A DNA stretch of 63,151 nt, the filler included, from Hausera hauseri (Eukaryota): assembly GCA_046269625.1 (NCBI GenBank). It is 9 parts of 9 records of this genome, joined end to end, with 100 filler letters (N's around TTAATTAATTAA, not from the genome) between each part and the next. Parts side by side here need not be neighbours in the genome. Positions count along the whole stretch, not along the records: positions 11,585 to 17,216 come from JBJURY010193638.1; 8 more parts are not named here. One strand, given 5' to 3'. A program made the position numbers and the translations under genes. How positions within the stretch are numbered: position 1 is the stretch's first letter; each line of letters begins with the position of its first letter. The notes under the pieces are model-generated. The model ran no database searches. It was not told the DNA's origin and was given only the letters and a program-made list of their open reading frames with translations. Below are positions 3,001 to 56,441 of this stretch, piece by piece.

Positions 3001-4277
3001 GATTATAGTTGTGTAAGCGTTGGAAAACCCGTCTGAGATGTTCTTCGTGTTGTTTTGGCGATGCCGATGCGACTAGTATGTTATCAGTGTACGGATATAC
3101 AAATGGCAAACCTGAAAGGACTAAACCAATGTGCCGTTGAAACGTTTATGCTGCGCTTTTTAAACCAAACGGCATAAATGCGTATTGGAAGAGACCAAAA
3201 GGTTCTATTATGGCCGTTTTCTTGGATGTCTTCGAGAGCTACCGGTATTTGGTGGTAGGCTTTTTCAAGATCTATGATCGAATAAATTGTTATCTTGTTT
3301 AAAGAGTGTAATATATCCTTAATCAAAGGTAGAGGATACGCATCCATGGTAGTGACGTTATTAAGTTGGGATAATCACCGCATAAACGGAATGTACCATC
3401 TTTTTGGGACGATGTGGTGTGGTGATGCTCACGGTGATTTTGACCGTTTTATAATACCAGCTTGCTCGAGTGCAGAGAATTCCGCTTGGACTGCCTGTTG
3501 ACGGCGTGGTGAAAGTGGGCGGAGTTTTTGCCTAATGGGCCTAGAATTTTCTGTGATGATATGATGAAACGTCATGTTAGCCGGATGAAATGCTGGGTCT
3601 TTTTTAGTGTATGAAAACAAGATTTGGTTAAATATTGTTGCATTTCTTGGCTAAGTGTAGTAAAGGCTGTTGTTGTTATGACAGTGGACTGATTGGATTT
3701 AATGTAAGAAACGCTAGAAATCGAGTCGCATAAATCGTCCTTGTCAACGCTTTTGTTCCTCTATTACCGGATTGCAACAAAAACGTTGAATTATTTATAT
3801 TGGTATTAATGACGTTCTTATTTGCGTTGGCTGACGGTTCTTTTAATATCGATTTTATAGGCGAGATATGTTGCATGATTGGTTGGTTATTTGTAGAGGT
3901 CGGTTTTGTTGAACTGCTTTTGATGATCCGACGTTGTCTACAATCTACAAGGAGGTTGTAGAAAGATAAGAAATCAGACCCAAGTATGGGAGATTGTGTG
4001 TCGGAAACAATGAAAGTCTAATTGAAAATTTCAGAGGATGGTGATAAAGTAAATGAAACCTTGGACGTGACGAATACACGTAAAGCTTCGCCGTTTGCTC
4101 TGTACAATTTAGTAGAAGTCGGTGAGGTAATTGATATTTTGGTGGACATTGGTAGAAGAGATACTGCCTCTCCGGAATTTATTAGAAAGTTGATTGGCTG
4201 ATTAGGCTTGGTGGAAATTAAGGCATTTAATGTGAAGACGGCATTCGTGCGGCTGTTACAATGACGAGGATAGCCTT

Positions 4278-4320
4278 TGCCAGCATGCGCCGGAACATCT
4301 GGTGGCTTTCTCAGTTTTTT
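4278..4320 (-). promoter_or_regulatory. Putative gag/pol -1 ribosomal frameshift site
   Basis: AAAAAAC heptamer at 4314-4320 (minus), followed by a CCAG-ATG...CAT-G-CTGG stem, about 45 codons before the protease. Confidence 0.55.
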
Positions 4321-4449
4321 GGATGGACAGATTATGGGAGTCCGGAGAATTACTATGGAAGTTTTAGGTCGGTTGGAAAACGTGCAACCGTTGATGCAGT
4401 TTCGGGCTTTATTACTGAACCTATTATGGTAAATACAAACAATGTCAGA

Positions 4450-5406
4450 TTTTTGAAAAGCGGGTGTAAAGAATTTTGCACCCCAAGCAACATTTGTTGA
4501 ACTGGTTCTTAAATTTAGTGTGATAATAGCACATTATAGGTCGAGTAGGGGACCTAGCGGATCTCGAATTGTTCGATGAAGCACGGCTGTGATTATTTGT
4601 GAATCGTTCTCGTCGCGGCATGGATAAATTGTCTAGTTTAGACGTTAAAGCAGAAATGGCTTGGTGTATTGCCCTGTTTTCATCCCGGAGAGCATTTATT
4701 TGGTTATTCAGCGCTACGATTTCTGCACTGGGCGGTGTTATAGGCGGTTGTAATGTGCTACAACAATTGGAGTATGGAGTGTATTTAATATTTTGTAGCT
4801 TTTATCAGCCAGTTGTGCTAGTTTTTCTAACGTAGCGGTATCTTCAACTACGGTTAGTAAAGCGCGTATTTCTTTCGGTAACGATTGAAGGAAATATCTA
4901 CGCAATAAGTCGGCATTGTCTGTCTGGTATACTTCTAATTTGATTAGTTGGGTCGAAGATGTTTGTAAAAATTCAGAGGGTATTTTATTTCCTATTGTGT
5001 TGTCGTTAAAATATTTATGGATAATATTATCCAGAGATGGTTCCGTGATTTTTAAAATCGAGTTAAAAAATGTTTTGTATGGGTCACTGCTTTGGAAAAT
5101 TTCCGACAAATTTGGAAGCTGCGACTTAATGTTGGAAGGCAAAAGTATAAGCAAACTGTTTGCTTTGAGAAAAGAGTCGACAATATTATTCGACTTCAAC
5201 CAAGCCGCATGAAAGTCCAACCATGTCTGGCTGGAATGTTGCTTGTCAACGAAGTATTTTACGCAAGGTAGGTTTACTGTTGACGACGGAGGTATAGGTG
5301 AATTTAGCGGTACGTTTATAGTAGGAATGTCGGCAAGGACTTGTTGGTCGTTAGATGAGACTTTTGGATCGGATAAGCCTAACAGACGGTAGTGTACGGT
5401 AAGCAT
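4450..5406 (-). pseudogene. gag: Gypsy gag, interrupted at ~4738; ends in CYYH..F...C-type knuckle
   Basis: ORF 4738-5406 has PSEFL and LRRYFLQSLP...LAQLADK motifs. Another frame continues to CYYHTKF at ~4515-4535. Confidence 0.8.
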
Positions 5407-6326
5407 AGGTGTTGAAGATGAGTCGATGTAATTTGTTATAATGTCAGATTGTCGGAGAAAAGTTCGTTAAAACTCAGGCGAAAATTAGCAAGAGTTGTTT
5501 GTCGTTGTAACATGCATGACAATTTTGCAATTGTTGCTAATTTGTGAATGTAGTATGTTTGTTTATGCTTATTTTCGAATAACAAGACGAGTGGGACGAA
5601 ACTGTCACATAAGTATGGTGTGCAGTGTGGTGTATAGGACACGGGCGCGCCCAAAACCCCTGCGTTATAATGGATGATCTGTCCAATTAAGGTGGTATCC
5701 GGGACATTAGATCTGGATATGACCTTGAACATTTGATCAGTTGGTTCGGAAAACGATAAGTCAATTCTTTTTGTTTGTATGTTAGCCAGTTTAGCAAGTA
5801 AATTTTTAGGTTTCAGTCCCTTGTTCATAGGTCCAACAAGTAAAAAGCCGAATTTGTAAAACTTAATTGAATTAACTATACTGAGGGATATTGAATGTAG
5901 TGATTGACGTACTCTGGTTGGCATGATTTTACAAAGTATAACAAAACAGAAAGGTAACAAATTACCCGAACTTTTTTTAAATCCTGAGTCCAAAATGTCT
6001 GTACAGCCCGGGATCATTGAGTTTATTGGTTCGAATTCAGCGTGCAAATGTCATTGACGTTTTTGCAGTTCACCTTTTGCTTTGGCAAAATTGACATCCG
6101 TAGAATTGCCTCGGACTTCCAAATACAAGTCAACTCTGTAACACAAATTGCTCCAAAAATTATTTACTTTATACTGATTATCTGGAAATTCTGTGACAAT
6201 ATACAGATGATTTTTCGGTTCGCTTCTTTACCAATCGTAATTCAGTGTGTATTTACAAGATAAGTGATATAACCTTTCCTGTGTTTCCAATCTTTGAGCA
6301 TGGATGACACTATTTTGCTCATAGAA

Positions 6327-6700
6327 TCAGTCAAAATACTGAAGAATTCTGAGAGTTTTGCTAGAGTATTCAAACAACTGTTCGGTCACCTCGTGTTTGA
6401 CATCAGGGTTAGACATGAACAACAGCGCACTATTCAGATTAATTTTATCTTCGGTAAAACTCTTAACGTCTTCTGCAGATATGTCCAAAATACTGTTACC
6501 AAGCATCGAGTCCTGGTCTATTGACATAGACAGATCACCCGTACTTTCATTACCTAACTTTAGGTTTTTTTTAATAAAGTCAACACAGAATTCAACATGG
6601 ATGATACCGCTTATAAGCATGATTTGACAGATAGCACCGAACACGCTCGACACCTTGTCGATCGGCATATCGTTGGACTGCATAAGAACATGTTCCAAAA
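6327..6700 (-). pseudogene. Unidentified host-like coding fragment abutting the truncated dynein
   Basis: The 138-aa open frame is helical/acidic and does not match the usual dynein C-terminus. Identity unknown. Confidence 0.3.
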
Positions 6701-9700
6701 TCGTCGAAATTAGAACTCCTTCCAGCAGATGACAAAAATCCAAATCTGCTAGGGGTTTTGTACAGAGGACATTCGTAAGTCATAGGATCGGCTTTTGGAA
6801 GACCAAACTGTGACGTCAGCATTACCGGTTGAAAATAGATAAATGGAAGTTTACAGAAACGTCGGTGACTTGAATTTGAAACAAGTTCAGACAAACTGCA
6901 GTCCCAAACGGCATTGTCTAGATATAAACCAAATATATACGTTCCATTGTCTGGTGGTTCCGTAATCAGAGAAATGATTTCAGAAACTGGAAAAGATTTT
7001 GACACATCCAACAATTCAGTCTGTTTGAAGTATCGTTCTATAGCTTTTGGCAAGGCTTCCGACAATACCGACATCGATATATGAAATAGTTCAATAGACT
7101 TTTTCTGTCTTCTTGCTTCATTTTGTAGCACAGCTGTGATGAAAGCCTGTGGGGAAAAGAAGCCGGGAAGCCAGTAACAGCAAATGTTTTTCTGCTTTTC
7201 CGATATGAGACCTCCCTTCCAAATATACTGCAATGCCTGATATTCATACTGCATTGGATTAATCTTGTCAGCATTGGGACTTAACGTTTTGCAGATTTCT
7301 TTAGAATATGTTATTATTTGATCCAAATACCAGTGATATTGTGACAGAACACTGTGACACCAAAACGAAATAAAATCAACTCTCATTCTAATATTCAGTG
7401 ACCATTCGGACAAAGAATTACCACTGGAAATGATACCCCAGGCAGGTGGAACCACATTAATTATTATATGGCTCCAAATATCTTCCAGATTCTCCGTGAT
7501 GTTCTTTTTACCAGTAATGTAGCTCAGAACAAATTTGATGTCTCGATGAATACGAATGAGCATTTTATTATAGTTATTGACCTCTTGTTCCAGAATGTTT
7601 TGGAAGGGTGAGTCAAAGAACCTTTGAATAGTATTTTCAGCATCGTTGTATTTTTTATATCTATTCATGTCATCTCTAATAGCATCACTGATTTTCAAGA
7701 ATGACGGCAGAAGTTGATCCGTAAATTTCGTAAAATCCTTTCCGTAAACCTCGGACATGTGAGATTCAATTGACTTCGGAATTCTATCCGACAGAAGATT
7801 AAGCATGTCAATAGCGCTATTTGTTTTATCATTTTTACCAAAAATATTCGCCTCATGATGCATGGATTGCTGCAGAACGACTTCTAATAAAAATTGTTTA
7901 GACTGATTTTCCAGTCGGACAATCTCAGCATTTTCTCCAAGTCCCAATAAAACTTCGGTGCTGGAACTCAAGAAGTTTCCGGATCGTATAAAATTATTTA
8001 TTTGATCAAAGCTATCGACATGTTGTGAAATGTCGGGCTGTTTGTCTGTGTAGAACTCCTCTTCTGAAAGATATTTCTGAAGAAGCGAAAGTAAGCAACG
8101 CTGGTCAAGATTGTCAGTAATTCTACCACTGTAGTTAATTCCACCAATGATGCTATGCAATGTCTTCCAACGAACAATATTTTCATTTACTACAAAACTA
8201 GGAAGTTGTTTGATAGATATCTCCAAATCCGTGTCGTTGAAGTCATACGGAAGACTAAACCCTAGACAACCATAGTTTTTTCTCTCTAGGATCGCCACGT
8301 TAAACAAACACAGACTGAATATCATTTTCTTTATTTTCATGCTTTGAGCATCAAACATATTTTGGGAAATAATTCCAGTATCATCAATAGCAAATGCTTT
8401 GATCATTTGATTTTTTATTCCAATTGGAGTTTCGATTGCAATTTTTAAACCAATTTGTAGAATTCCAATAGGGAAGTCGTTGTGTGGGTGGGTACTGAGA
8501 ATCAATTTAAAATTGGGATCATTATCTAATTTTGTTGTTTGAAGATTTTCAATAATTTTCTGCAAGTTTTGCATCCATGAAATCATTAAATCACAATTTT
8601 GCAGATAAATCCAACGGCCTTTATGTAAATTAGTTTTCTGAATAAGTGATTCAGCTTTTGTAGCTTGCCCTCTGCCCATTGAGACTATGTCAATGTGAGA
8701 CGAATTGCCCCTTAATTCGCATACCAATTTCATTACGTTATTCATGGGATCGCTGTTTGGTCCCAGTATGAATATTATTGGCATTCGTGATGGCGACTCA
8801 CTGAATACTTTCAGTAAATTGATATCGGTGAAATTCGTATAAATATCCGAGAATGTCGTTCTAACATAATCGAGAGAAGCACTAACGAAATTTCTCAATG
8901 ACAAAAGAGAAATGACGATAAGTCGGTCAAAATTGTTCAATAAATCAAAAGAAAACTTCCCTATGAAACCCGTTTTATGCAAAGGATTATTGTCTAATCT
9001 ATACTCCATCCATGACTCAACATTTTCTGATAAACTCATACAAAGATATCTAAATTTCTCTGGCAATTGATTTTCCAAGAATTTACATTTATTCCACAAT
9101 TCATGGGATAGCCATTCGACATTGTTCGGTTTGGAAAGAGACGATCCATCTTCATTTGAAATGACAATATGTTCACCATAAACCTCCGATGTTGTATGAA
9201 GTCTAATGAACGTTGCCCACTGGTGATTACTGATGTACTCCATTCCAATATAATTATCACTTCGCAAAATTGCTGTACACATCATAAATGATAGTAGAGG
9301 TTTATGGTTACTAAAGACACCGTATGACGTCATTTGAAAAGCCGTTATTGTAACTAAATCGATCATTTTCGTAAGTTTCAACTGTTCGTCGTTGGGGGCA
9401 TCCGGATTTTCCTGCTTAAAAGAATTATTGACTGAGTCTATACACGAACAGAACAACGACTGAAACCACGCCAGTGAAAACTGGTACATGTAATTAATGA
9501 TTGAAAAATCCGCAAGAACAAAATAGATCTGACCAGCACGAATTGCTAATGGCAAATAAAAGGCTCTTGCAACTTGAAGCTGTTTTTCGGCGTGTACTGC
9601 TTCTTCTAGACGTTTTTTAATATTGACTGCAGTGGTTTTACTGTTTTCCAAATTCTGTGCAAGTTCGGAATCATTGATAAGAGCATCAGCATTTTCTTGT

Positions 9701-11140
9701 AAAAGACTCAGCGTTTTATCTTCTAATTCTCGGATAGTCTGAAGACTTGATGCATGCATTTTCAACAGCATGTTTCTTTGCTCTTCAATTTCTGGACGTT
9801 CCTTACTGACCACAAGGGACAACAATTGTTCCTGAAGTCCAGTCATGTTGACTGTGAAATTGACAATACACACAAGTCGGCTCACAGACGAATGCAAAGA
9901 TGGATTGGCTTGGGATATCATTAAGTATAATCTAAAATATTTCTCATCTTTATTCGAAATAATTTCATCCTACTTAAAACTCGGACTGTATTCAATCTCA
10001 TTATCCCCAATCTTAACCATTTTGAGATTATTTTTTAAAAACGTTTCATGTCTCATAAGAGGACTCAAGGCAGGATCGATATAATTGTCAATGTCCTCAA
10101 GTAATACTGTTTCGCTACTCGTGTTGATCTCTCCAAATTAGATATATAATCGCTTAGATGTGTACTCAAGTCTTTCATAGTATAATTCGTACAAGATCGC
10201 AGAAAGTTTTTCTCTTGTTTTTCCTTTTCAGACTGCAATGCGTCAATCAACGCGGCTGCTCTGGTCTTTCATTTGTAAGTCTTTAACATTCATTTAACTT
10301 CAATTCTTTTTCCACACTTGTCGAGTTTTTGAATGTGACTTTGTACCATTTTACCTGATTTTGTTCCCATTCCAGTTTTTTCTGGATAATTCCATCGCAT
10401 TATTCGCAGTCGTTACATTGTTACTTCTCGGTATTAACATCGTATAGACAGCGTGATAATTTTCCACTGCTAAAACCCATTGGCAAATACACTTGCATGC
10501 CACCGACACTTTACCAAGTTTCTGGATTAAAATCATTTTGTTTTGTGTATTGTCTGAGTTGGTGGTACATACTTTTGCTGATACCATCCTTGTCGTAGTT
10601 TTTCAAGCTATACAAAAAATTTGTATCACTAAGAATCATTTTAGCATTTAGCCAATTAGGCTGTACCGACAACAAAACACAAAAGCACTCATAACCATCT
10701 CCACCAAATGTGGAGGACTACGATACACGCGTATTTCGAATATTGATACTTTGTCCAAACAATTTAATGATGCGATTACGTCATTCAGAACTGGAATAAC
10801 AGATTGCCAGTACTCTTCACATTCCTTTGAATATTTCTCCACGGCTTCAGTTTTAAGTTTTATAGCGTCTTCTTCATCTTTCACTATATCTTCTATTTCT
10901 GAGACTAAATGCCTATCTTCTAATTTGTGAAGCAACTTCATTGTTTCTTCTGCCTCCTGTTCTATTTGCGGGGTTAGGTGTATGAGTTCTTCCTTCATAT
11001 TAACAATAAGAGACTTTGTGCCATTTAACTGATTCAGACCATTTAGAAATCTTTTTCGACTAGTTGGATCTTTTTTATAATATTCGTAGAGGATTTTAGT
11101 AAATGTATTCAGATATTCAACAAAATCACCAGTGGCAATA
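6592..11140 (-). pseudogene. Axonemal dynein heavy chain, C-terminal part (stalk/MTBD, AAA5, AAA6, C-terminal domain), DNAH14-like; disrupted in this assembly
   Basis: Motifs RFLNGL, EIRVYRSPP.LVEMVM, YDKD, KVSVACKCICQWV, VNFTV...GLQEQLLSLVVSKERPEIE, YMYQFSLAWF, SMGRGQ...WIYLQNC, ERKNYGCLGFSLPYDFNDTD, INYSGRITD, WLPGFFSPQAF, YECPLYKT. The 1109-aa ORF is intact; the upstream part has several 1-nt frameshifts. The DNAH14 subtype is from recalled similarity around ELRGNSSHIDIVSMGRGQATKAE. Confidence 0.93.
9932..9973 (-). other. 42-nt GT-AG spliceosomal intron in the dynein gene
   Basis: GTAGGA...TTTTAG. Removing it deletes an in-frame stop and restores EIEYSPSFK|LYLM, matching the dynein Y...FKLYL motif. 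Confidence 0.85.
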
Positions 11141-11484: not shown

Positions 11485-11584
11485 NNNNNNNNNNNNNNNN
11501 NNNNNNNNNNNNNNNNNNNNNNNNNNNNTTAATTAATTAANNNNNNNNNNNNNNNNNNNNNNNNNNNNNNNNNNNNNNNNNNNN
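11485..11584. other. Artificial contig linker
   Basis: 44N-TTAATTAATTAA-44N (stops in all six frames). Confidence 0.99.
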
Positions 11585-11618
11585 TTATTAACAATAATAA
11601 ATTTTATGCAAATTTTGT

Positions 11619-13586
11619 TTATGTTTCCTCAAATAAACTTTTATTTCCAATTTCTAACACCCCACCAATGACTACTTCATCTTCCACTAATGATAGATAT
11701 GGTTTTATATTCCTAACATTTACTCGCGTGGCTCCGCTCTCTCTCTCTATATGGGCCACACTTCCTTGAATGTTTATTAGTTTAAAAGGGCCTTTATATA
11801 CAGGTTCCAACTTCCCCCTTCCATATTGTAGGTCTTTCACTAATACGAATTTAGCTTCTTTTAGAGTTTTGGGCATATAAACCGACGGGTTTTTTCCACG
11901 AAATTTCGGGCTCAGCACTTGACTCATAAAAAACTCTAACCGTTCCGCGTACGCACACATAGACAACGGCAAGAATTCCCTTTCTCCCTTAATGATATCT
12001 CCCGGCAAAACGACATTCTGCCCCATCATTAACATATTTGGGGTAATTCCCTCCCCCGTAATGGGAGCTGATCGTAGCGCCAATAACGCGAAGGGTAATA
12101 ACTCGACCCAGTGAGATGCTTGGGTTTCATCGGCAATTAGCATGCTCCGCAAAGTGTTGAGCAGTGTTTTATGCATATTTTCAACCAAACCATTGCTTCT
12201 GGGGTTCCCTGGGGCGGTTCGACGGTGAATTATGCCTAACTGAGAGCAGACACTGGTAAATAATTCACTTTCCATTTGAGAGCCCTGATCGGTAATTAGC
12301 GCCTTGCACACTCCTGCAACTGGAACAATTTCCCTAATAAAGGTTTCCACAATAGTTTTCGCTTCAATATTCCGCAATGGGAAAACGAAAGGATACCGAG
12401 AAAATCGATCAATCAGCGTCAATATATATTTAAATTGTTTGTGCATGGGCATCTTAAGAATATCTAAATGCATTACTTCAAATTTTCTTTTTACTGATTT
12501 AAAAGGTGTAAACTCCGGAGAAATATTCCGAAATACTTTGGATTTTTGACACGCATCACACGCGGCGACAATACGTTTTATCTTAGACATCATTTTCGGA
12601 AACACAAAATTCTCTCGTAAATTTAAATACGTACGTTGAACTCCATAGTGTTGCATTCTATGGTATCTCAAAATTAACTCTTTTTCTAGCTTCTCCGGCA
12701 CATATAATCGAGGGGACGTTTGACGGCCTTCACGACCGCAATTTGATATATCACCATATAATTTAATCGATTTTACGCCAGTATCAAATTCAACCTCCTT
12801 CAATTGCAAACTTGTCTTCAATTTTCCGGATAGATAATCATGCAACGTCTCATCTTCATATTGAGCCTCTTTTAATCGTTTAAAATCAATTCCTTCATTA
12901 AAATTTTTAAAAATACCCAAAAGCGAATTTACGGTCACTTTTTTTACGACCTTATCCTCGGTCCTTGTTTCTTCTCCCCCACTCAGGGGAAGAGAAACCT
13001 TCTCAGATTCATCTCCCCCACTCAGGGGAAGAGAAACCTTCTCAGATTCATCTCCCCCACTCCCCAATTTCAGCTCAGCTTTGTTATTATACTCGTCGGC
13101 AAAAGGCCCCCCTTCAAACGGGAAATTGGGCATTCTAGTGGTCGTGACATACTTAATTCTTAGATCGTATTCCGAAATATACGATATATACCGCCTTTCT
13201 CGCATACACAGAGTTGAATGTAAAGAGTTACTTTCAAGTATTCTTTTTACCGATTTATTAAGTACATAAACTATTATCTCTTTCCCCGCACACAAATAAA
13301 CAAACTTTTTAAGCATATTAACAATCGTTAAAAGTGTTTTACTAAAATTTGTATATTTCTCTTCATCACTGGTCAAAACATGGCTATAAAAAGCCAAAGG
13401 AAGGTGTCTCCCTTCTTTCTCCAATTCACAAACCGTCCCAGCCAACACATGGCTTTCCTCTTGTATAAACAATTCGACCCTTGCGTCCACATCGGGAAAT
13501 GTTAAGGGGATCATCTGTTTTAAGAGCCGCTTACTTATTTCAAAGGCGGTTAATTCCTGTGGAGACAAAATCACTCTCACCCCCAA
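11619..13586 (-). CDS. pol: Pol part 2: RNase H-like (non-catalytic) + integrase
   Basis: PLAFYSHVL..E.KY RNase H scaffold; H...H/C..C; HLDIL, ITDQG, SNGLVENMH; YKGPFK. In the +1 frame relative to part 1. Confidence 0.92.
   Translation of the reverse strand: MGVRVILSPQELTAFEISKRLLKQMIPLTFPDVDARVELFIQEESHVLAGTVCELEKEGRHLPLAFYSHVLTSDEEKYTNFSKTLLTIVNMLKKFVYLCAGKEIIVYVLNKSVKRILESNSLHSTLCMRERRYISYISEYDLRIKYVTTTRMPNFPFEGGPFADEYNNKAELKLGSGGDESEKVSLPLSGGDESEKVSLPLSGGEETRTEDKVVKKVTVNSLLGIFKNFNEGIDFKRLKEAQYEDETLHDYLSGKLKTSLQLKEVEFDTGVKSIKLYGDISNCGREGRQTSPRLYVPEKLEKELILRYHRMQHYGVQRTYLNLRENFVFPKMMSKIKRIVAACDACQKSKVFRNISPEFTPFKSVKRKFEVMHLDILKMPMHKQFKYILTLIDRFSRYPFVFPLRNIEAKTIVETFIREIVPVAGVCKALITDQGSQMESELFTSVCSQLGIIHRRTAPGNPRSNGLVENMHKTLLNTLRSMLIADETQASHWVELLPFALLALRSAPITGEGITPNMLMMGQNVVLPGDIIKGEREFLPLSMCAYAERLEFFMSQVLSPKFRGKNPSVYMPKTLKEAKFVLVKDLQYGRGKLEPVYKGPFKLINIQGSVAHIERESGATRVNVRNIKPYLSLVEDEVVIGGVLEIGNKSLFEET
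12974..13062 (-). repeat. 39-bp in-frame tandem duplication (SGGDESEKVSLPL x2.3)
   Basis: Identical units start at 12974 and 13013, with a partial unit at 13052. Confidence 0.97.
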
Positions 13587-15978
13587 AAGGATTTCCTTTC
13601 AATAACAATTGTAGCGGACGGATAACACGCGCAAAATTCGGGACATGTCCACGAAAAAAATTTATGGCCCCTATAAAAGCTCTGATATCTTTAATGGTTC
13701 GAGGGACTTTAATTTTATTTATGGCTTCGACTTTTGACTTGCTTGGTCTAATTTCGTTATAAGAAATATCAAACCCGAGATAAGTCACTTGTTCTTGAGC
13801 AATAAAACACTTTTTCGGCGTTAATTTTAGATTTAATTTATTCAAACGGACTAGGACTTCCTCCAAAATCACTCTATGTTGTTCTATAGTCTCCGTAGCA
13901 ATCAAAATATCATCTAAATATATAAACACATCAGGTAAATCTCCTAGAATAATATTAATAAAACGCATAAAAGCCCCTGGTGCAACTGACAACCCTTGAG
14001 CTAATCTCGTGAAAGAGAAAGATCCGAATACAGTATTAATTGTGCACATACGTTGACTTTCCTTATCAATGGGAACTAAAAAATAAGCTTTAGATAAGTC
14101 GGCCACAGTAAAAACGCGTTTATTTTTTAACATAAAAATGACATCATTTTGCGCGGGAATATTAAAAGTGTTCTTGAAAATTATTTTATTTAAAAGTCGG
14201 AAGTCCACCGTCAACCGCACACGACCATCGCCCTTTGCTACAAAAACGCACGGAAAGCCAAATTCAGTCCTGTGAGAAGGGATTAAAACACCACCCCTCA
14301 CAAGCTCCTCTATCTCTTCTTTGGCAGCTTTATAAAACTTGTTTGCGATACGCCGCGCGGGGATACTTATAGCCTTTGCACTCGGTTTCAGCTTAATTTT
14401 ATAAGGTAACATAGCCTTTAATGCATCCACTTGCATCTTATTTAAAACCCCCAATGAAGCGTTTAAATTCTCCACCCCTCCCCCATTTTCCTCAAAAGGA
14501 GTTTTCGGGGGCTCGGCGTAAATATCGAGAAACACATTCGGAAAGCTATTTACCAATTCGACAAAACACGGATTTATCTGTTTCGACGGTGGAAATATAG
14601 CGCACAAACTATCGTAACTCACATAATTATGGCCAATATTTTCCTGTTTAAACAATTTAATTTCTCTATCTATCTCTCTATCAAATAAAACTCCTTCACT
14701 TAAATTTAATACGAAATTATATTTACGTAAGAAACTCATTCCCAAAATAGGCATGGCCACGTCGGCGATACAACATGTGACTGTATACGCTCGACGCACA
14801 CCAAAATCCAAAACTAATTCTTTTTCTGCGTACACACACACACTAGTGTCATTCGCAGCTTTCAAACTTCCTACAGGGTCCCTCCTCCTAAAAAGTCGAT
14901 TAGCGGGCCAGATATTCAGATTGCTTCCCGTATCAATCAAAAAATATCGTTTGTGATTAAACTCATATACATAAAGCAATGAATTTTCATGTGTACTTTT
15001 AAACCCCATGTGCGCGCAAAAATACCCACTATCTTCCCCGTCGTGAGAGAAAGCATCTCGTATTTCCCAACCTAAATTTGGGGCGTGACCGCGAATTTTA
15101 TTGTTTAAGATTTTATTACCTTCCCTTTCCAATTTTAAAATTAAATCGTTATCAACACTTGATTTAATATTACATGTATAACAATTGTTAATTCTTTTAG
15201 TTTCTCTTACAACATCAAAATCAATATTTTTTTTTTTAAAATTATACATCAAATTTTTATTATTCCATTCAGTTATAGAGAAAATTGAACGGTTACTCCC
15301 CACTTTAAAAGGAAATGATTGAAGCTCGGCCAGAGTACCAGACCCCCTCTCCCCCAAAGTGGGTTTTTCGACCAGAACCCCCATCTTCGGATGAGAGAAG
15401 GCCAGACTCGAAATTTTCCTCCATGAAATTTTATTATCAAATAAATTACCGTCAAAATTAATTTCTTGAAATTCCATACTAAGTAAATTAAAATTTTGCA
15501 CTAACTTATATTTTAATTTTAATCCAATTTTTACCTTATTAAGAGCGCTAAACAATTTTGTTAATAATTTTTTTCTTTTTAAAGGGCACAAATAAAGAAG
15601 ACCTTTTTGTTGAGACAGCGAAGGAGTGTATTTGATTTCACTTACAGCTCCTTCTCCCCCCCAAACCCTCGGTCTCTTACCAGCCCTAAGCTCCCTACTC
15701 ATTAAATGACATGTGACGTCATATGAATTGAAATTACTTTTCTCTATAAAATGTCTATTGTCATAATTTCTATCAATTAAAGGAATACATATATCTATAA
15801 CATTATTTTCTAAACTATTTGAAGTATAAAATCTACAATTAATAATATTGTTAAAAGATACATTACGAATTTTCTTCGTCGGTTTTATTTTATTTTCTCT
15901 TTGGAAAGGGCTGACTAATTTTCTCGAGTGGGGGAGGGTAAATTTTGTCCCGTCTCCCCCACTCCATGGCTGTTTTTT
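13540..15978 (-). CDS. pol: Pol part 1: long N-terminal segment + aspartic protease + reverse transcriptase
   Basis: YFLIDTGS, PILGMSFL, DGRVRLTVDFRLLN, ADLSKAYF, YLDDILI, YLGF. Confidence 0.93.
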   Translation of the reverse strand, partial: KKQPWSGGDGTKFTLPHSRKLVSPFQRENKIKPTKKIRNVSFNNIINCRFYTSNSLENNVIDICIPLIDRNYDNRHFIEKSNFNSYDVTCHLMSRELRAGKRPRVWGGEGAVSEIKYTPSLSQQKGLLYLCPLKRKKLLTKLFSALNKVKIGLKLKYKLVQNFNLLSMEFQEINFDGNLFDNKISWRKISSLAFSHPKMGVLVEKPTLGERGSGTLAELQSFPFKVGSNRSIFSITEWNNKNLMYNFKKKNIDFDVVRETKRINNCYTCNIKSSVDNDLILKLEREGNKILNNKIRGHAPNLGWEIRDAFSHDGEDSGYFCAHMGFKSTHENSLLYVYEFNHKRYFLIDTGSNLNIWPANRLFRRRDPVGSLKAANDTSVCVYAEKELVLDFGVRRAYTVTCCIADVAMPILGMSFLRKYNFVLNLSEGVLFDREIDREIKLFKQENIGHNYVSYDSLCAIFPPSKQINPCFVELVNSFPNVFLDIYAEPPKTPFEENGGGVENLNASLGVLNKMQVDALKAMLPYKIKLKPSAKAISIPARRIANKFYKAAKEEIEELVRGGVLIPSHRTEFGFPCVFVAKGDGRVRLTVDFRLLNKIIFKNTFNIPAQNDVIFMLKNKRVFTVADLSKAYFLVPIDKESQRMCTINTVFGSFSFTRLAQGLSVAPGAFMRFINIILGDLPDVFIYLDDILIATETIEQHRVILEEVLVRLNKLNLKLTPKKCFIAQEQVTYLGFDISYNEIRPSKSKVEAINKIKVPRTIKDIRAFIGAINFFRGHVPNFARVIRPLQLLLKGNPFGGESDFVSTGINRL

Positions 15979-16982
15979 GGAGGTGGCTTCGCGGTAATCC
16001 CATACATTAGGCAATATGGGCCTTCACAGTGATATGCTCTTTGCCCAAAGCGCAAATGCGGCCCACAAACCTTATTCCTTTGTTGGGGAGGGGCTCGATC
16101 CCGTCCCCTAGGGGTAGGGCTTCTCCGTCTCATGTTTTTCTCGCTTTTCGTTGTACGTCCCTCTTCAATCTTGCCCACTCTAGTCAAAATAGATAGAATT
16201 GTTTCTTGCATCCCGGCAATTAATAAATAGATATCTTCCAATTTATTCTCTTTGGGGATCTCTTCTGTAGATTTTACTTGCCATTTTTCATCCCCTTTTC
16301 TCTCTTGCGTGATTAAATGATTACAATCGTAACGGGGTCGATCTTCCAAGAGGGTATCGGCGGCCGCAGCCAGCTGAGAAAGCGTATTATTACTTAAAAG
16401 CAACTTCAATGACCTTGCTATATCCTTGGGCAAAGCTCGTAAAAATACTTCCGAAAGAAAAGAAGATTCCCTTAATTCCCATTGTTCGAAGGTGTCTTCT
16501 CCGATCAAACTTTTTATTCGTAACAAGTATTCTGATGGCAATTCTCCAATCTTCATTTTGGAAGAAAAAAGCTCATTAATTCGGGTACGATAACTGGGAG
16601 CATATTTTTCATGCAAAATTTTTTTCAACTGCTGAAAACTCTCTTCATGTAAAGGTAACTCTAACGCCCTCAGAACCTGGGGGGGCAGGTAACTACTTAA
16701 AAACCTTACCCTTTCTATTGCGTCTGTGATGCCATTTACCCTTAATAACAGGTCGGCATGATTAAACCAGGCCAGAGCATCTTCTTTGTCAAATTTTGGT
16801 AATTCTATGAAAGTACTTCTCTTCATTAGCCTACGTGGTGTTACGTCATCAAATAGTTGGCGTGGCGTGCCATATCCTGTTCTCTGATTCGTCGAGGCAG
16901 ATGGCATCGCATGTTCGGTTTCACCGGCGTTTCTCGGTTCGCTGCTTGATCTGCGTCTCAAGTTTCTTCCACGAGTAGCCAT
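15915..16982 (-). CDS. gag: Gypsy Gag
   Basis: LPKFDKEDALAWF, PSEYL, FLRALP, C-terminal CGPHLRFGQRAYHCEGPYC knuckle. Start taken at the MATRGR ATG. Confidence 0.9.
   Translation of the reverse strand: MATRGRNLRRRSSSEPRNAGETEHAMPSASTNQRTGYGTPRQLFDDVTPRRLMKRSTFIELPKFDKEDALAWFNHADLLLRVNGITDAIERVRFLSSYLPPQVLRALELPLHEESFQQLKKILHEKYAPSYRTRINELFSSKMKIGELPSEYLLRIKSLIGEDTFEQWELRESSFLSEVFLRALPKDIARSLKLLLSNNTLSQLAAAADTLLEDRPRYDCNHLITQERKGDEKWQVKSTEEIPKENKLEDIYLLIAGMQETILSILTRVGKIEEGRTTKSEKNMRRRSPTPRGRDRAPPQQRNKVCGPHLRFGQRAYHCEGPYCLMYGITAKPPPKNSHGVGETGQNLPSPTREN
15926..15978 (-). promoter_or_regulatory. Programmed -1 ribosomal frameshift signal
   Basis: In-frame A_AAA_AAC (15972-15978), 7-nt spacer, perfect 11-bp stem GAGTGGGGGAG/CTCCCCCACTC. 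pol is in the -1 frame. Confidence 0.92.
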
Positions 16983-17112
16983 TTTCTTACAACAATTTGC
17001 GTTTATTTGAATACGTTCACAAAATTTAATTATAATAGTTAATGACACTGAACTGCACTTTGCAATCACTAATTCACTTTATGATTTTAAAGCTCTTAAC
17101 ATAGTACGACTG

Positions 17113-17130
17113 TCACACAGGGGGCAACCA
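17113..17130 (-). promoter_or_regulatory. Primer-binding site, elongator tRNA-Met-like
   Basis: TGGTTGCCCCCTGTGTGA, 2 nt after a ...TTCA LTR end; resembles TGGTGCCCCGTGTGA. Confidence 0.65.
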
Positions 17131-17132
17131 AA

Positions 17133-17216
17133 TGAATTGCAACACAAATAAACAAAGTAATAAGTTTTGACTCCAATTGGCTGATTAATAACGTCAATTA
17201 AAAAAGGCTGAAAGAT
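17133..17216 (-). repeat. 3' end of the 5' LTR (truncated by contig end)
   Basis: Ends in CA immediately before the PBS. Confidence 0.6.
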
Positions 17217-17316
17217 NNNNNNNNNNNNNNNNNNNNNNNNNNNNNNNNNNNNNNNNNNNNTTAATTAATTAANNNNNNNNNNNNNNNNNNNNNNNNNNNN
17301 NNNNNNNNNNNNNNNN
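17217..17316. other. Artificial contig linker
   Basis: 44N-TTAATTAATTAA-44N. Confidence 0.99.
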
Positions 17317-20300
17317 CATTGGGGTGAGTCCGAAATATTCAGATGGCCGGAACTGGTTGTCTCCATAATTTTTTCGACTGAAACCATTGGGGTGAGTCCG
17401 AATATGCAGGTGTTCGAAACTGGCTGTCTCCAAAATTTTTTCCGTTTCAACCCATTGCGGTGAAGCCGAATATGCAGACGACCGGAACTGGTTGTCTTCA
17501 TAATTTTTTCTTACTCAACTCCTTTCGGCGAATCCGAATATGCAGATGTCCGAAACTGGTTTCCTCCACAATTTTATCCGACTCAACTCATTGCGGTGAA
17601 TCCGAATATGCAAATGGTCGGAACTGGTTGTCTCCATAATTTTTTCGACTGAAACCATTGGTGTGAATCCGAATATGCAGGTGTTCGAAACTGGCTGTCT
17701 CCAAAATCTTTTTTGACTCATCTCATTGCGGTTAGTCCGAATAGTCCGGTGTTTGAAATTGGCTTTTACCAAATTTATTTTCGACTCAACTCATTGCGGT
17801 GAATCCGGATATGCAGATGTCCGGAACTGGTTGTTTCCATAATTATTCCCGACTGAAGTCATTGGGGTGAGTCCAAATATGCAGGTGTTCAAAACTGCCT
17901 GCCTCCAAAATTTTTTTCGATTCAACTTCTTGCGGTGAGTCCGAATATGCCGTTGTTTGAAACTGGCTGTCTCCAAAATTTTTTTCGACTCAACTGATTT
18001 CGGGGAATCCGAGAAAGCAGGCCTTCGAAGCTGGTTCTCTCCAAAACTTTTTCCGACTCAACTCATTGCGGTGCGGCCTAATGGACAGGTTTTAGAAACT
18101 GGCTCTCGCCAAAATTATTCTCGACTAAACTCTTTGCGGTGAAGCTGAATACGCAGGACTTCGAAACTGGCTGTCTCCAAAAATTTTTCCGACTCAACTC
18201 ATTGCGGTAAATGGGAATATGTAGGTGTCCGGAACTGGTTGTCACCATAATTTTATCCGACTCAACTCACTGCGGTGAAACTGAAAACGCAGGTTTCCGG
18301 AACTGGCTGTCTCCAAAATTTTTTCGGCCTCAATACATTTCGGAGTGTACAAATAACCGGCTGTTCGAAACTGGCACTCTGAAAATTTTTTTCCGACTCA
18401 AATCATTGCGGTGTGTCTGAATATGCAGATGACCGGAACTGGTTGTCTCTATAATTTTTTCGACTAAACCCAGTGGGGTGAGTAAGAATATGCAGGTGTT
18501 TGAAACTGGCAGTGTCCAAAATTTTTTTCGATTCAACTGATTGCGGTGAGTCCGAATATGCAGGTGTTCGAAACTGGCTCTCTCCAAAGTTATTTTGGAC
18601 TAAACTCATTGCGGTAAGGCTGAATACGCAGGACTTCGAAACTGGCTGTCTCCAAAATTTTTTCCGACTCTAGTCATTGCGGTGCATGCGAATAAGTAGG
18701 TGTCCGTAACTGGTTGTCTCCATAATTTTATCCGACTCAGTTTATTGCGCTGAGGCTGAATATGCAGGAATTGCAAACTGGCTGTCTCCAAAATTTTTTC
18801 CGACTCAACTCGTTGCGGTGAATCCGAATAAGCAGGTGTCCGTAAGTGGTTGGCTCCAAAATTTTGTCGCTTCAACACATTGCGGTGAAGCCGAATAAGC
18901 AGACGTCCGGAACTGGTTGTCTCCATAATTTTATCCGACTCAGTTCATTGCGCTAAGGCTGAATATGCACGAATTGCAAACTCGCTGTTTCCAAAATTTT
19001 TTCCGACTCAACTCACTGCGGTGAATCCAAATACGCAGATGTCCGGAACTGGTTGCTTCCATAATTTTATCCGACTCAACTCATTGCGGTGCGGCCTAAT
19101 GTGCAGGTTTTCGAAACTGCCTGTCTCCAAAATTTTTTTCGACTCAACTCATTGCGGTGAGGCTGATTATGCAAGACTTCGAAACTGACTGTCTCCAAAA
19201 TTTTTTTTGACTACACTCATTGCCGTGAATCCGAATATGCAGATGCCCGAAACTGGTTCTCTCGATAATTTTTTGGATGAAAGCCATTGTTGTGAGTCCG
19301 AATATGCGGGTGTTTGAAACTGGTTGTCTCCAAAATATTTTCCGACTCAACTCCATGCGGTGAATCCGAATATGCAGATGTCTAAAACTGGTTGCCTCCA
19401 CAATTTTATCCGACTGAACTCATTGCGGTTAGGCTAAATATGCAGGACTCCGAAATTGGCTGTCTCCAAAATTTTTTTCAACTCAACTCATTGCGCAGAA
19501 TACGAATATGCAGATGTCCGGAAATGGTTGTCTTCATCATTTTTTCGATTGACGCCATTGGTGTGAGTGAGAATATCCAGGTGTTTGAAATTGGCTGGAT
19601 CCAAAATTTTTTTCGACTCAACTCATTGCGGTGCGACCTAATTGGGCATGTTTTCAAAACTGGCTGTCTCCAAAATTTTTTCCGATTCAACTCATTGCGA
19701 TGAAACAGAATAACCAGGTGTCTGAAACTGGTTGTCTCCAAAATTTTTTCATACTCAACTCCTTGCGGTGAATCCGAATATGCAGATGTCCGGAAATAGT
19801 TGCCTGCATAATTTTATCCGACTCAACTTATTGTCGTGAATCCGAATATGCAGATGGCCGGAACTAGTTGTCTCCATAATTTTTTCGACTGAAACCATTG
19901 GGGTAAGTCCGAATATGCAGGTGTTCGAAACTGGCTGTCTCCAAAATTTTTCCGTTTCAACCCATTGCGGTGAAGCCGAATATGCAGACGACCGGAATTG
20001 GTTGTCTCCATAAATTTTTCCTACTTAACTCCTTGCGGTGAATCCGAATATGCAGATGTCCGAAATTGGTTGCCTCCATAATTTTATCCGACTCAACTTA
20101 TTGCGGTGAATCCGAATATGCAAATGGCCGGAACTGGCTGTCTCCAAAATCTTTTTTGACTCATATCATTGCGGTGAGTCCGAATAGTCCGGTGCTCGAA
20201 ACTGGCTCTCTCCAAATTTATTTTCGACTCAACTAATTGCGGTGAATACGGATATGCAGATGTCCGGAACAGGTTGTCTCCATAATTATTTCCGACTGAA

Positions 20301-23286
20301 GTCATTAGGGTAAGTTCGAATATGCAGGTGTTCGAAACTGGCTGTCTCCAAAATTTTTTTCGACTCAACTCATTGCGGTGCGGCCTAGTGGGCAGGTGTT
20401 CGAAAATGGCTGTCTACAAAATATTTTCCGACTCAACTCATTGCGGTGAGTCTTAATAAGCAGGACACCGAAATTGTCTGTCTCCAAAATGTATACCGAC
20501 TCAACTCATTGCGCTGAGGCTGAATATGCAGGTGTTCGAAACTGACTGTGGCCAAAATTTTTTCCGACTCAACTCGTTGCGGTGAATCCGAATATGCAGA
20601 TGTCTGGAACTGGTTGCCTCCACAATTTTATCCGACTCAAATCATTGCGGTGAGGCTGAATATGCAGGACTCCGAAATTGCCTGTCTCCAAAATTTCTTC
20701 AGACTCAACTGACTGCGCAAAATACGAATATGCAGATGTCCGGAACTGGTTGTCTCCATAATTTTTTCGACTGATGCCATTGGTGTGAGTCAGAATATGC
20801 AAGTGTTCGAAACTGGCTGTCTCCAAAATTTTTTCCGACTCAACTCATTGCGGTGAATGGGAATATGCAGGTTTCCGGAACTGGTTGTCTCCATAATTTT
20901 ATCCGACTCAACTCACTGCGGTGAGGCTGAATACGCAGGTTTCCGGAACTGGTTGTCTCCAAAATTTTATCGGCCTCAATACATTTCGGAGTGTACAAAT
21001 AACCGGCTGTTCGAAACTGGCACTCTGATTAATTTTTTCCGACTCAAATGATTGCGGTGAGTCCAAATATGCTGATGGCCGAAACTGGTTGTCTCCATAA
21101 TTTTTCCGACTGAAGCCATTTGTGTGAGTCCGAATATGCAAATGTTCGAAACTGGCAGTGTCCAAAATTTTTTTCGACTCAACTGATTGCGGTGAGTCCG
21201 AATATGCAGATGTTCAAAACTGGCTCTCTCCAAAATTATTTTGGACTAAACTCATTGCGGTGAGGCTGAATACGCAGGACTTCGAAACTGGCTGTCTCCA
21301 AAATTTTTTCAGACTCAACTCATTGCGGCGCATGCGAATAAGCAGGTGTCCGTAACTGTTTGTTTCCAAAATTTTATCCGACACAATTCATTGTGCTGAG
21401 GCTGAATATTCAGGAATTCGAAACTGGCTGTCTCCAAAATTTTTTCCGACTCAACTCACTGCGGTGAATCCGAATAAGCAGGTGTCCGTAACGGTTTGTC
21501 TCCATAATTTTATCCGACTCTATTCATTGCGCTGAGGTTGAATAAGCAAGAATTCCAAACTGGTTGTCTCCATAATTTTTTCGACTGAAGCCATTGCTGT
21601 GAGTCCGAATATGCAGGTGTTCGAAACTGGCTGTGTCCAAAATTTTTTCCGATTCAACTCATTGCGGTGAATCAGAATAACCAGGTGTCCGAAACTGGTT
21701 GTCTCCAAAATTTTTTCATACTCAACTCCTTGCGGTGAATCCGAATATGCTAATGGCCGGAACTAATTGTCTCCATAATTATTCCCGACTGAAGTCATTG
21801 AGGTGAGTCCGAATATGCAGGTGTTCGAAACTGCCTGCCTCCAAAATTTTTTTCGATTCAACTCCTTGCGGTGAATCCGAATATGCCGTTGTTCGAAACT
21901 GGCTGTCTCCAAAATTTTTTCCGACTCAACTCATTGCGGTGAATCCGAATATGCAGATGTCCGGAACTGGTTGCCTAAATAATTTTATCCGAGTAAACTC
22001 ATTGCGGTGAATACGAATATGCATATGTCCGGAACTGGTTGTCTCCATAATTTTTTCGACTGAAGCCATTGATGTGAGTCCGACAATGCACGTGTTCGAA
22101 ACCGGCTGCTTCCAAAATTTTATTCGACTCAACTCATTGCGGTTAGTCCGAATAAGCAGGTGTCCGTAACTGGTTGGCTCCAAAATTTTGTCGCTTCAAC
22201 ACATTGCGGTGAAGCCGAATATGCAGACGTCCGGAACTGGTTGTCTCCATAAGTTTTTCGACTGAAGCCATTGGTGTGAGTCCGAATATGTAGGTGTTCG
22301 AAACTGGCTATTTCCAAAATTTTTTTCGACTCAACTCATTGCGGTGAGTCCGAATATGCAGGTGTTCGAAACTGGCTGTCTCCAAAATTATTTCTCACTC
22401 AACTCATTGCGGTGAATCCGAATAAGCAGGTGTCCGGAAGTGCTTGTCTCCAAAATTTTTTCCTACTCAACTCCTTGCGGTGAATCCGAATATGCAGATG
22501 TCCGGAACTGGTTGCCTCCACAATTTTATCCGACTTAACTTATTTCGGTGATGCCGAATATGCAGATGTCCGGAAGTGGTTGCCTCCACAATTTTATCCG
22601 ACTCAACTCATTACGGTGACGGTGAATATGCAGGGCTCCGAAACTGGCTGTCTCCAAAATTTTTTCCAACTTAAATCATTGCGGTGAATGCGAATATGCA
22701 GATGTTCGGATTTGGTTGTTTTCATAATTTTTTCGACTGAAGCCATTGGTATGAGTCCGAATATGTATGTGTTCGTAACTGGATGTCTCCAAAATTTTCT
22801 TCGACTCAACTCATTGCGGTGAGTCTTAATAAGCAGGACGCCGAAATTGTCTGTCTCCAAAATGTATACCGACTCAACTCATTGCGCTGAGGCTGAATAT
22901 GCAGGTGTTCAAAACTGACTGTGGCCAAAATTTTTTCCGACTCAACTCGTTGCGGTGAATCCGAATATGCAGATGTCTGGAACTGGTTGCCTCCACAATT
23001 TTATCCGACTCAAATCATTGCGGTGAGGCTGAATATGCAGGACTCCGAAATTGCCTGTCTCCAAAATTTCTTCAGACTCAACTGACTGCGCAAAATACGA
23101 ATATGCAGATGTCCGGAACTGGTTGTCTCCATAATTTTTTCGACTGATGCCATTGGTGTGAGTCAGAATATGCAAGTGTTCGAAACTGGCTGTCTCCAAA
23201 ATTTTTTCCGACTCAACTCATTGCGGTGAATGGGAATATGCAGGTTTCCGGAACTGGTTGTCTCCATAATTTTATCCGACTCAACT
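17317..23286. repeat. Tandem satellite, ~68-bp (67-69) monomer, roughly 88 copies, fills the whole contig
   Basis: Consensus ~CATTGCGGTGAATCCGAATATGCAGGTGTTCGAAACTGGCTGTCTCCAAAATTTTTTCCGACTCAACT; period 68 (17317, 17385, 17453). Confidence 0.98.
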
Positions 23287-40430: not shown

Positions 40431-41363
40431 ATGGAGACAAGAAATATGAAGGCTGTAAGAGCGGGAGCAAGTGATGGAGAATCAGCTCCAAGTCACGCGG
40501 CCCCCGCCGAAGATTTACCGGTAGAGGGAGCTGCAAACAATACAGTCATCAGGTACGTGATGGTACCTACGCAAACGGCGCTCAGACGGTTTGGTGGGGA
40601 GACAGGGCCATCGTTGGATGAGTTCATCCAGGGAGTGAGAGCGGCATGGCGAGCTGGGGTGATGAGTAAGCAGCAAAGGGCTGACGTCATCATGGAAAAT
40701 GTTACCGCCGACGTCAAGAGTGAGTTGAAGTTACAGGCGGTGACAGATGATCCTGAAGGAATGGTGGCTGTATTAGAAGAGGTCTATGGAGACCTGAGAT
40801 CATTACAAGAACTATCATCAGCTTTCCACACAATACGACAGGGCACGCGGGAGTCCGTTAGGGATTATTCCCATCGGCTGCATGGCGCGTTTGAAAGAGT
40901 GGTGGGGGCGCAAGAGAGGGGAAACATCACCCCTTAGCACCCATCGACACTGAGAGATCAGTTTATAGCGATGCTGAAAGACACTCTGACCCAGAAAATG
41001 TTGAAAGAAAGGGTTCTTCAAGAACCGGAGGCTTCTTTTCTTACAATCAGGGACTATGCCATGAGGTGGGTCGGTTATGATGACGTTCCTCGGGCACACG
41101 TGTCAGGGGTAGCTTACGACAACTCAGCCCACGTACCCGGGAGGAGTCAAGATGATTGGGAAGCGCTGAAAGCGGAGGTGGAGCAACTGAAGCAGCAGTT
41201 GGAAATGTCGAGGCGGCAACAGCGACAGACAGAAGCCCCGAGGCATGCAATAAGTCAAGCAGATGCACCACATCAGAGGCAACAGCGACGGCGGGAGGTC
41301 CGCTGTTTCCGCTGTAAAAGACTGGGTCACGTACAGAGGGAGTGCCAGGAGGCACTAAACTAG
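40431..41363 (+). pseudogene. gag: Gypsy gag with one in-frame TAG (40935-40937)
   Basis: RQGTRESVRDYSHRL, LRDQF, CFRCKRLGHVQREC knuckle; both ORFs are in the same frame. Confidence 0.9.
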
Positions 41364-44300: not shown

Positions 44301-44386
44301 AACCATTGGAAGTGGTTGCCATCGATTTCACGCTACTGGAGCGTGACTCCAAGGGTTATGAAAATGTGTTGGTGATCACAGATGTG
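41354..44386 (+). CDS. pol: Gypsy Pol (PR-RT-RH-IN), open to contig end
   Basis: ILDTGSQVS, SPWASPVVLV, DLASGYYQV, YLDD, VDAS, KLELL, YTDN, NADYLSR, HHCC, AIDF. Confidence 0.96.
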
Positions 44387-44486
44387 NNNNNNNNNNNNNN
44401 NNNNNNNNNNNNNNNNNNNNNNNNNNNNNNTTAATTAATTAANNNNNNNNNNNNNNNNNNNNNNNNNNNNNNNNNNNNNNNNNNNN
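44387..44486. other. Artificial contig linker
   Basis: 44N-TTAATTAATTAA-44N. Confidence 0.99.
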
Positions 44487-56341: not shown

Positions 56342-56441
56342 NNNNNNNNNNNNNNNNNNNNNNNNNNNNNNNNNNNNNNNNNNNNTTAATTAATTAANNN
56401 NNNNNNNNNNNNNNNNNNNNNNNNNNNNNNNNNNNNNNNNN
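56342..56441. other. Artificial contig linker
   Basis: 44N-TTAATTAATTAA-44N. Confidence 0.99.

Follow-up and report, generated by a model that had tools for sequence, protein, structure and literature searches.

A CsRn1-like Gypsy family with a degenerate RNase H active site: a candidate tether with no second RNase H detected

Strand transfer in LTR-type reverse transcription needs RNase H (PMC3187697). In Tat elements the native Gypsy RNase H is described as keeping its fold and its last Asp and losing its catalytic residues, together with an added archaeal-type RNase H (PMC4408406, PMC10508981). Tat lineages without the added RNase H show no degeneration, and the position of the added domain makes no difference to the decay of the native one, even if it lies outside pol (PMC10508981). 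The published view is that the native domain degrades only once a second RNase H has been gained (PMC4408406, PMC10508981).

Retroviral, lokiretroviral and Odin systems are described with an inactive tether and a second, cellular-type RNase H directly downstream (PMC9040795). In Chronos and Archon from oomycetes, the Gypsy Pol has a native RNase H that is degraded, plus an added RNase H (PMC5348765, PMC10508981). Our searches of the open-access literature listed no LTR element whose native RNase H is degenerate and which lacks a second RNase H. Every published tether conversion that we found carries a second RNase H, and the element presented here appears to differ. Another described group, the CsRn1 clade, has a Gag CHCC finger of the form C-x2-H-x9-C-x3-C, a tRNA-Trp PBS and the order PR-RT-RH-IN, and in one of its layouts gag overlaps pol and a -1 frameshift is used (PMC2582038).

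The window is the whole stretch of DNA analysed, 63,151 nucleotides (1-63151) from Hausera hauseri, in which contigs are joined by 8 linkers of the form N44-TTAATTAATTAA-N44, and neighbours across these linkers are not real neighbours. The features of the element are listed below in the direction of its transcription.

11585..17216, minus strand: whole contig with the internal region of the element, 5632 bases, between N runs at 11485-11584 and 17217-17316
17133..17216, minus strand: likely 5' LTR end (ends CA), cut by the contig end, boundary placed from the CA and the PBS
17113..17130, minus strand: PBS-like tract starting TGG, two bases after a CA
15915..16982, minus strand: gag ORF with a weak DUF7041 match and a C-x2-H-x9-C-x4-C (CHCC-type) finger (Pfam, sequence)
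15926..15978, minus strand: predicted signal for a -1 shift from gag to pol, with A AAA AAC, a 7-nt spacer and an 11-bp stem
14989..15984, minus strand: open stretch of ~330 residues upstream of the protease (sister: ~190 residues)
14674..14982, minus strand: aspartic protease with DTG, without a Pfam match, aligned to the protease of the sister
13765..14235, minus strand: RT core with YLDD (Pfam RVT_1, E 2.6e-27)
13540..13598, minus strand: overlap of the two pol frames, where this copy changes frame near 13573, after the RT thumb and ahead of the RNase H
13170..13487, minus strand: RNase H-fold domain with D1/E2/D3 replaced by Q46/T88/L113 (profile, alignment, model)
13095..13097, minus strand: D168, possible retained fourth Asp (alignment), after an 8-9 residue insertion, low model confidence
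12969..13046, minus strand: tandem duplication of 39 bp, in frame, within the linker from RNase H to integrase, which is short and acidic
11691..12713, minus strand: integrase with HHCC finger, D379-D437-E473 core and GPF module (Pfam Integrase_H2C2 and rve)
11660..11684, minus strand: likely PPT, an interrupted purine-rich tract (18/25 purines) inside the pol end, role suggested by position
11585..11659, minus strand: likely 3' LTR start (begins TG), cut by the contig end, boundary placed by reading of the sequence

The two pol ORFs on the minus strand, 16023-13540 (protease and RT) and 13598-11619 (RNase H and integrase), give the order protease-RT-RNase H-integrase of Ty3/Gypsy LTR retrotransposons. 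The D-E-D-D of a Ty3/Gypsy RNase H is not found, its first three positions being Q46, T88 and L113. Only the outer, non-overlapping LTR ends are carried by the contig, with PBS-like and PPT-like tracts present. The frameshift stem has a predicted energy of -24.6 kcal/mol (z -3.3), and 1 of 200 shuffles was equally stable. The motif of its 5' arm (15945-15964) occurs three more times in the RNase H-integrase linker (12965-13062). A first-pass annotation of this DNA had described the machinery outside the RNase H as intact. DTG, YLDD, HHCC, D379/D437/E473, the PBS-like tract and the frameshift stem are all present, but pol is split near 13573.

Like CsRn1, the element has a CHCC-type finger and the PR-RT-RH-IN order, and its gag overlaps pol at a predicted -1 frameshift. 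Unlike CsRn1, the finger reads C-x2-H-x9-C-x4-C instead of ending in C-x3-C, both in the element and in L001, the locus of its closest relative (the two Gag proteins are 27% identical). Furthermore, ~3/12 places of the PBS-like tract, compared by eye, do not agree with the tRNA-Trp site, and a disarmed RNase H sets the element apart as well. By finger and frameshift the element may be called CsRn1-like, the tree described below holding unnamed relatives only.

The RNase H scaffold is open, as had been reported, and scores 43 bits on Pfam RT_RNaseH, compared with 81-104 bits for three further RNase H domains from Gypsy elements of the window. For the assignment of active-site positions, 243 proteins gave 191 near-complete segments, and 184 remained after near-duplicates of the closest relative, P0171, had been removed. 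Aligned to P0171 and within the alignment of these 184 domains, the D1 position is Q46 (13461-13463), the E2 position is T88 (13335-13337) and the D3 position is L113 (13260-13262), and each of the three codons is 2 bases away from the nearest acidic codon. In the 183 relatives, acidic columns 1-4 are conserved at 100%, 100%, 99% and 99%, respectively, and 182 of the 183 keep D1, E2 and D3 together. An RNase H match was also obtained in 24 of 45 loci examined: D-E-D-D in 19, partial or split in 4, and N at the first site in one weak partial match. E47 was tried as the counterpart of D1 and rejected, as the sister sequences place Q46 at this position.

The claim that all four acidic motifs are replaced thus stands for D1, E2 and D3. 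The fourth position reads P157 when ungapped, but MAFFT aligns D168 with the conserved AD after an insertion of 8-9 residues. The fourth catalytic Asp may hence survive as D168 behind the insertion, at a position beyond the range 13120..13480 assigned to the domain in the first-pass annotation.

Active-site columns of the RNase H were kept in 1/9 cases versus 15/19 for scaffold columns (P=0.001), and the three main acids alone in 0/3 (P=0.023), both with column sets chosen by us. Highly conserved columns were kept in 28/31 cases in RT, 34/37 in integrase and 11/18 in RNase H. The columns A46, S47, N209, S224 and R225, which surround the active site, are altered too. The activity of an RNase H depends on acids one to three, and the fourth is not known to be required. 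Judged from its residues, the element's RNase H domain is very probably without activity.

As a related element that still has TTDAS and DRELLA, the one at 2.4-2.7 kb had been named. This copy does keep TTDAS and DRELL, but it reads D-E-N-N and is a decayed Gypsy copy (1150-5466) broken by many stops and frame changes. It also belongs to a different contig, its identity to the element in RT and IN reaches only ~31-33%, and it makes a poor comparator. On the alignment the proper comparators are the sister families P0171 and P0021, both D-E-D-D.

An AlphaFold2 model of the RNase H domain was made from an alignment of 72 rows, 71 of which are relatives with a normal RNase H. The pLDDT is >90 over most of the core and <50 in the tail holding D168. 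The best fold match is CaMV RT (Z 16.8, rmsd 2.8, 147 aligned), and the model also matches Ty3 RT (Z 13.7, rmsd 1.5, 97 aligned) and the retroviral connection regions of MLV, XMRV and foamy virus (Z 12-13). As normal domains dominate the alignment, the model predicts that the disarmed domain is compatible with the RNase H fold, which is compatibility and not proof.

The same model bears on the possibility that acids at shifted places, D168 together with E47 or E48, form a new active site, so that some activity is kept. E47 and E48 do sit beside the end of strand 1, and the fourth Asp may be D168. No acid is found <=5 residues from T88 or L113, however, the nearest being E80, E107 and E122, and the five changed columns around the active site also speak against a functional site. 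We regard a rebuilt site as quite improbable.

Among the matches listed, the closest relatives are P0171 (DNA in L001), with 40% identity over 99% of the RNase H-integrase frame, and P0021, with 38%. Identity between the sister families and the element is 36-50% by domain. For the RNase H the disarmed and the intact sister domain are 36% identical, and this pair may be used for studying the origin of tethers. P0171 has a single unbroken pol frame and a shorter stretch in front of the protease. One 90% cluster with P0171 contains proteins labelled Armadillidium vulgare and Dictyocoela muelleri, a matter of contamination or horizontal transfer. Related integrases are P0220, P0022, P0025 and P0026. 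No relative >47% was found in protein searches, the best 150 of 55,218 matches in a representative library, and metagenome and viral contigs. The same searches (again with the best 150 of 55,218 library matches) gave no relative at 50%-99% identity that could date the loss.

In a tree of RT and integrase with 33 rows, the element, P0171 and P0021 form one clade with an SH-aLRT of 100. Since both clade-mates keep D-E-D-D, the loss of the RNase H residues is derived. The RNase H branch of the element is 1.25, compared with 0.32 and 0.91 for P0171 and P0021, and its branch for RT and integrase is 0.60, compared with 0.39 and 0.65, respectively. Counting lineage-specific changes in the element versus P0171, we obtained 33 vs 10 for RNase H (P=0.0006), 30 vs 23 for RT (P=0.41) and 44 vs 28 for integrase (P=0.08, a weak trend). 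Versus P0021 the RNase H counts were 33 vs 19, which is not significant (P=0.07). RNase H appears from these counts to be the sole domain clearly accelerated in the lineage of the element.

Whether the loss is restricted to one copy was addressed with the public run X1, which has 86% of the sampled words present and may be the source sample of the window itself. A contig of X1 with depth 23.7 spans 13033-13559 with one differing letter, at 13090, and the catalytic region is identical. The depth of X1 over the RNase H domain is 24.5-26.8, and most other bins have 20-29. Near 13573 most of the X1 depth is free of the break: contigs making up 23.2 of the 26.7 depth units have another length there than the window copy. 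Differences between the window copy and the main X1 contigs are clustered, with 4 in 28 bases (12078-12105) and 6 in 86 (14172-14257), which would fit a copy put together as a mosaic from variants of the family.

The variants of X1 were taken from 40 of 151 rows, chosen by the tool, 38 of them coding, on unphased contigs where depth does not equal copy number. Synonymous changes make up 23 of the 38 coding variants, with 15 that are not, against an expected share of 0.275-0.285 (P 2-4e-5). For the 19 full-depth rows within the same 40 of 151, the counts are 11 synonymous versus 8 not (P 0.005-0.007). The resulting pN/pS, for these 40 of 151 rows, is ~0.25-0.29. The variation of the family shows purifying selection. 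Variants occur at depths close to 3.6, 7 and 11-12, which points to several copies, with two alleles as an alternative.

The frame break of the window copy would fit decay of a single dead copy once it had inserted, or a fault of the assembly. This explanation is largely refuted and has very little probability left: there are at least 6 base changes in three codons and no stop in ~1785 codons, and the same region is found in X1 at full depth with a synonymous excess. As a crude bound on neutral decay, the joint probability of two changes in each of three codons and no stop in ~1785 codons was <1e-11 at all five divergences tried. Because the catalytic region is identical in X1 and the variants are mostly synonymous, the loss is old and family-wide and not the decay of one copy. 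Random decay had already been called unlikely, and the multi-base changes aimed at the active site, their presence in the main X1 form and the purifying selection all support this judgement. The loss of the RNase H catalytic residues is real, derived and family-wide, and the Gypsy family concerned looks young.

A pair of variants with almost the same depth (12 and 11.2 of 26.7) might represent two alleles, as expected from a domesticated single-locus host gene or from a fixed insertion kept for another purpose. We consider domestication highly doubtful, as the PBS, the PPT-like tract, the LTR ends, the frameshift signal and the other catalytic motifs are all kept, the window copy is frame-broken, and the depths of ~3.6, 7 and 11-12 suit several copies better. 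The family has very probably kept copying itself after these RNase H residues were lost.

A priori a hidden domain would be the better guess, since the tether conversions found in print all come with a second RNase H and Tat lineages that lack it are not degenerate. An earlier statement that no second RNase H is visible held in searches of Pfam, NCBIfam, PHROGs, PDB and the ESM Atlas, and with an RNase HI profile built for this purpose. This profile was made from 143 RNases HI, bacterial and phage only, and metazoan and non-LTR types are covered only by Pfam. Three control proteins with an added RNase H scored 10-23 bits on the profile, and none of the six-frame segments of the contig exceeded 2.7 bits. 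No added RNase H was matched by Pfam in the three ORFs, and two antisense ORFs (12865-13269 and 14627-14956) gave no match in the RNase HI profile and NCBIfam searches. An RNase H directly after the tether, the mark of dual-RNase H systems, is absent: the linker to the integrase has ~50 free residues, which leaves no space for another domain, and it aligns with the linker of the sister without a profile match.

The most plausible place for a replacement nuclease of the element itself, too diverged to be detected, would be the ~330 residues in front of the protease. This stretch is ~140 residues longer than the spacer of the sister, and its comparison with that spacer remained at shuffle level (218, 231 and 409 of 1000), with no detectable homology between the two. 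By eye it has FDG, AEL and GH-x6-E-x2-D in an RNase HI-like order, although the third acidic residue is indistinct, and an alignment of its GH motif to RNase HI of E. coli is obtained, albeit at E 1.5. The degradation of native domains irrespective of where the added one sits, even outside pol, would also suit such an arrangement (PMC10508981).

The searches do not support it. There were 0 Pfam matches, 0 PDB matches and nothing relevant in PHROGs or NCBIfam for the pre-protease stretch, and an NCBIfam match to holo-ACP synthase (E 0.012, 15.8 bits versus a cutoff of 128) was rejected as noise. On the RNase HI profile the stretch scores -0.9 bits, equalled by ~5% of 1000 shuffles. With hhalign its score was equalled by 125/150 global and 43/150 local shuffles, and a Gypsy RNase H used as control beat all 150 global shuffles. 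The best ESM Atlas value, 0.84, belongs to zinc-knuckle clusters and is a weak lean, and a single-sequence structure model with pLDDT 31 was uninformative. We find a hidden nuclease of the element's own unlikely. The stretch also has a C-x2-C motif at 15270-15150, where X1 variation is high.

Compared with the described systems, the element resembles Tat in that the native domain is degenerate with its fold apparently retained, and the kept last Asp may apply here too (D168). It is unlike Tat in that an added archaeal-type RNase H was not detected in the element, which also belongs to a different Gypsy clade. With retroviral, lokiretroviral and Odin tethers it shares a predicted inactive RNase H fold after the RT thumb; unlike in these, a short acidic linker runs straight to the integrase, and an intact sister domain with 36% identity still exists. 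Chronos and Archon likewise have a degraded native RNase H, but their added RNase H is not detected here. By analogy, the element would resemble the tether half of dual-RNase H systems, which does not imply membership.

With the domain predicted to be dead, RNase H activity probably comes from outside the element. Ty3 and CaMV offer a model for such a supply. In Ty3, RT subunit B supplies the RNase H, and CaMV needs a second RT molecule to associate for cutting, whereas in the RT molecule that polymerises, the RNase H domain takes up an inactive, connection-like arrangement (PMC11363490). Such an arrangement offers a reason for a fold kept without catalysis and makes a supply in trans physically possible.

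One candidate donor is the RT of a co-packaged helper retrotransposon, which would act as the second, cutting subunit on the same dead tether. Cleavage by Ty3 subunit B and by the transient second CaMV RT molecule provides a precedent (PMC11363490), and excess, polymerase-independent RT is described as degrading RNA in retroviral particles (PMC3187697). X1 also holds diverged pieces (17/74 are <90% alike) in which the RNase H region is not visible. A close helper was not found, however: the other Gypsy copies of the window are ~30% identical in RT and the best sister family 45%. Over the RNase H, the X1 depth of 24.5-26.8 beside a contig of 23.7 leaves little space for a close active form. Dependence on a helper is also expected to relax RT, protease and integrase, and these are conserved. 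A helper is somewhat unlikely on this evidence, though we would place it ahead of a hidden nuclease.

The reading that we prefer, tentatively, is a CsRn1-like Gypsy family in which the dead, folded RNase H serves as a structural tether and the host RNase H removes the RNA strand. The RNase H domain would keep its fold, without catalysis, solely as a tether, the polymerising RT would hold it in the connection position while another enzyme cuts the RNA, and this enzyme would be a cellular RNase H of the host acting in trans. If the source is indeed external, a host enzyme is a somewhat better guess than the RT of another element, because RT, protease and integrase remain constrained, which would be unneeded under dependence on a helper. 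L1 elements depend on the RNase H of their host. In Ty1, RNA:cDNA hybrids may be cut by cellular RNase H1/H2 (PMC4214602). Counting against a host donor, yeast cellular RNase H is described in the same source as suppressing Ty1 mobility (PMC4214602), and access of the host enzyme to the particle and correct selection of the PPT lack an explanation.

Taken this way, the element might, with the same reservation, represent tether formation without duplication in an otherwise self-sufficient LTR lineage, with a host nuclease completing reverse transcription, and so reverse the accepted order of events. If true, either a cellular or helper RNase H can replace the element's own, or an unrecognised nuclease exists, with a weight limited to one family and two data sets.

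Other parts of the window were annotated as well. An open frame of 1125 residues at 6592-9969 corresponds to a dynein heavy chain in its C-terminal part; the span is free of introns, which may hint at an intron-poor host. A satellite array at 17317-23286 has a 68-bp unit in ~70 copies, in register, with 60-90% identity. Gypsy elements with long open pol frames and a D-E-D-D RNase H are found at 41318-44434 (plus strand) and 56386-61745 (minus strand), with the ~30% RT identity given above. Short frames at 46256-46717 and 53414-55054 resemble, by eye, fragments of Polinton-type DNA polymerase genes.
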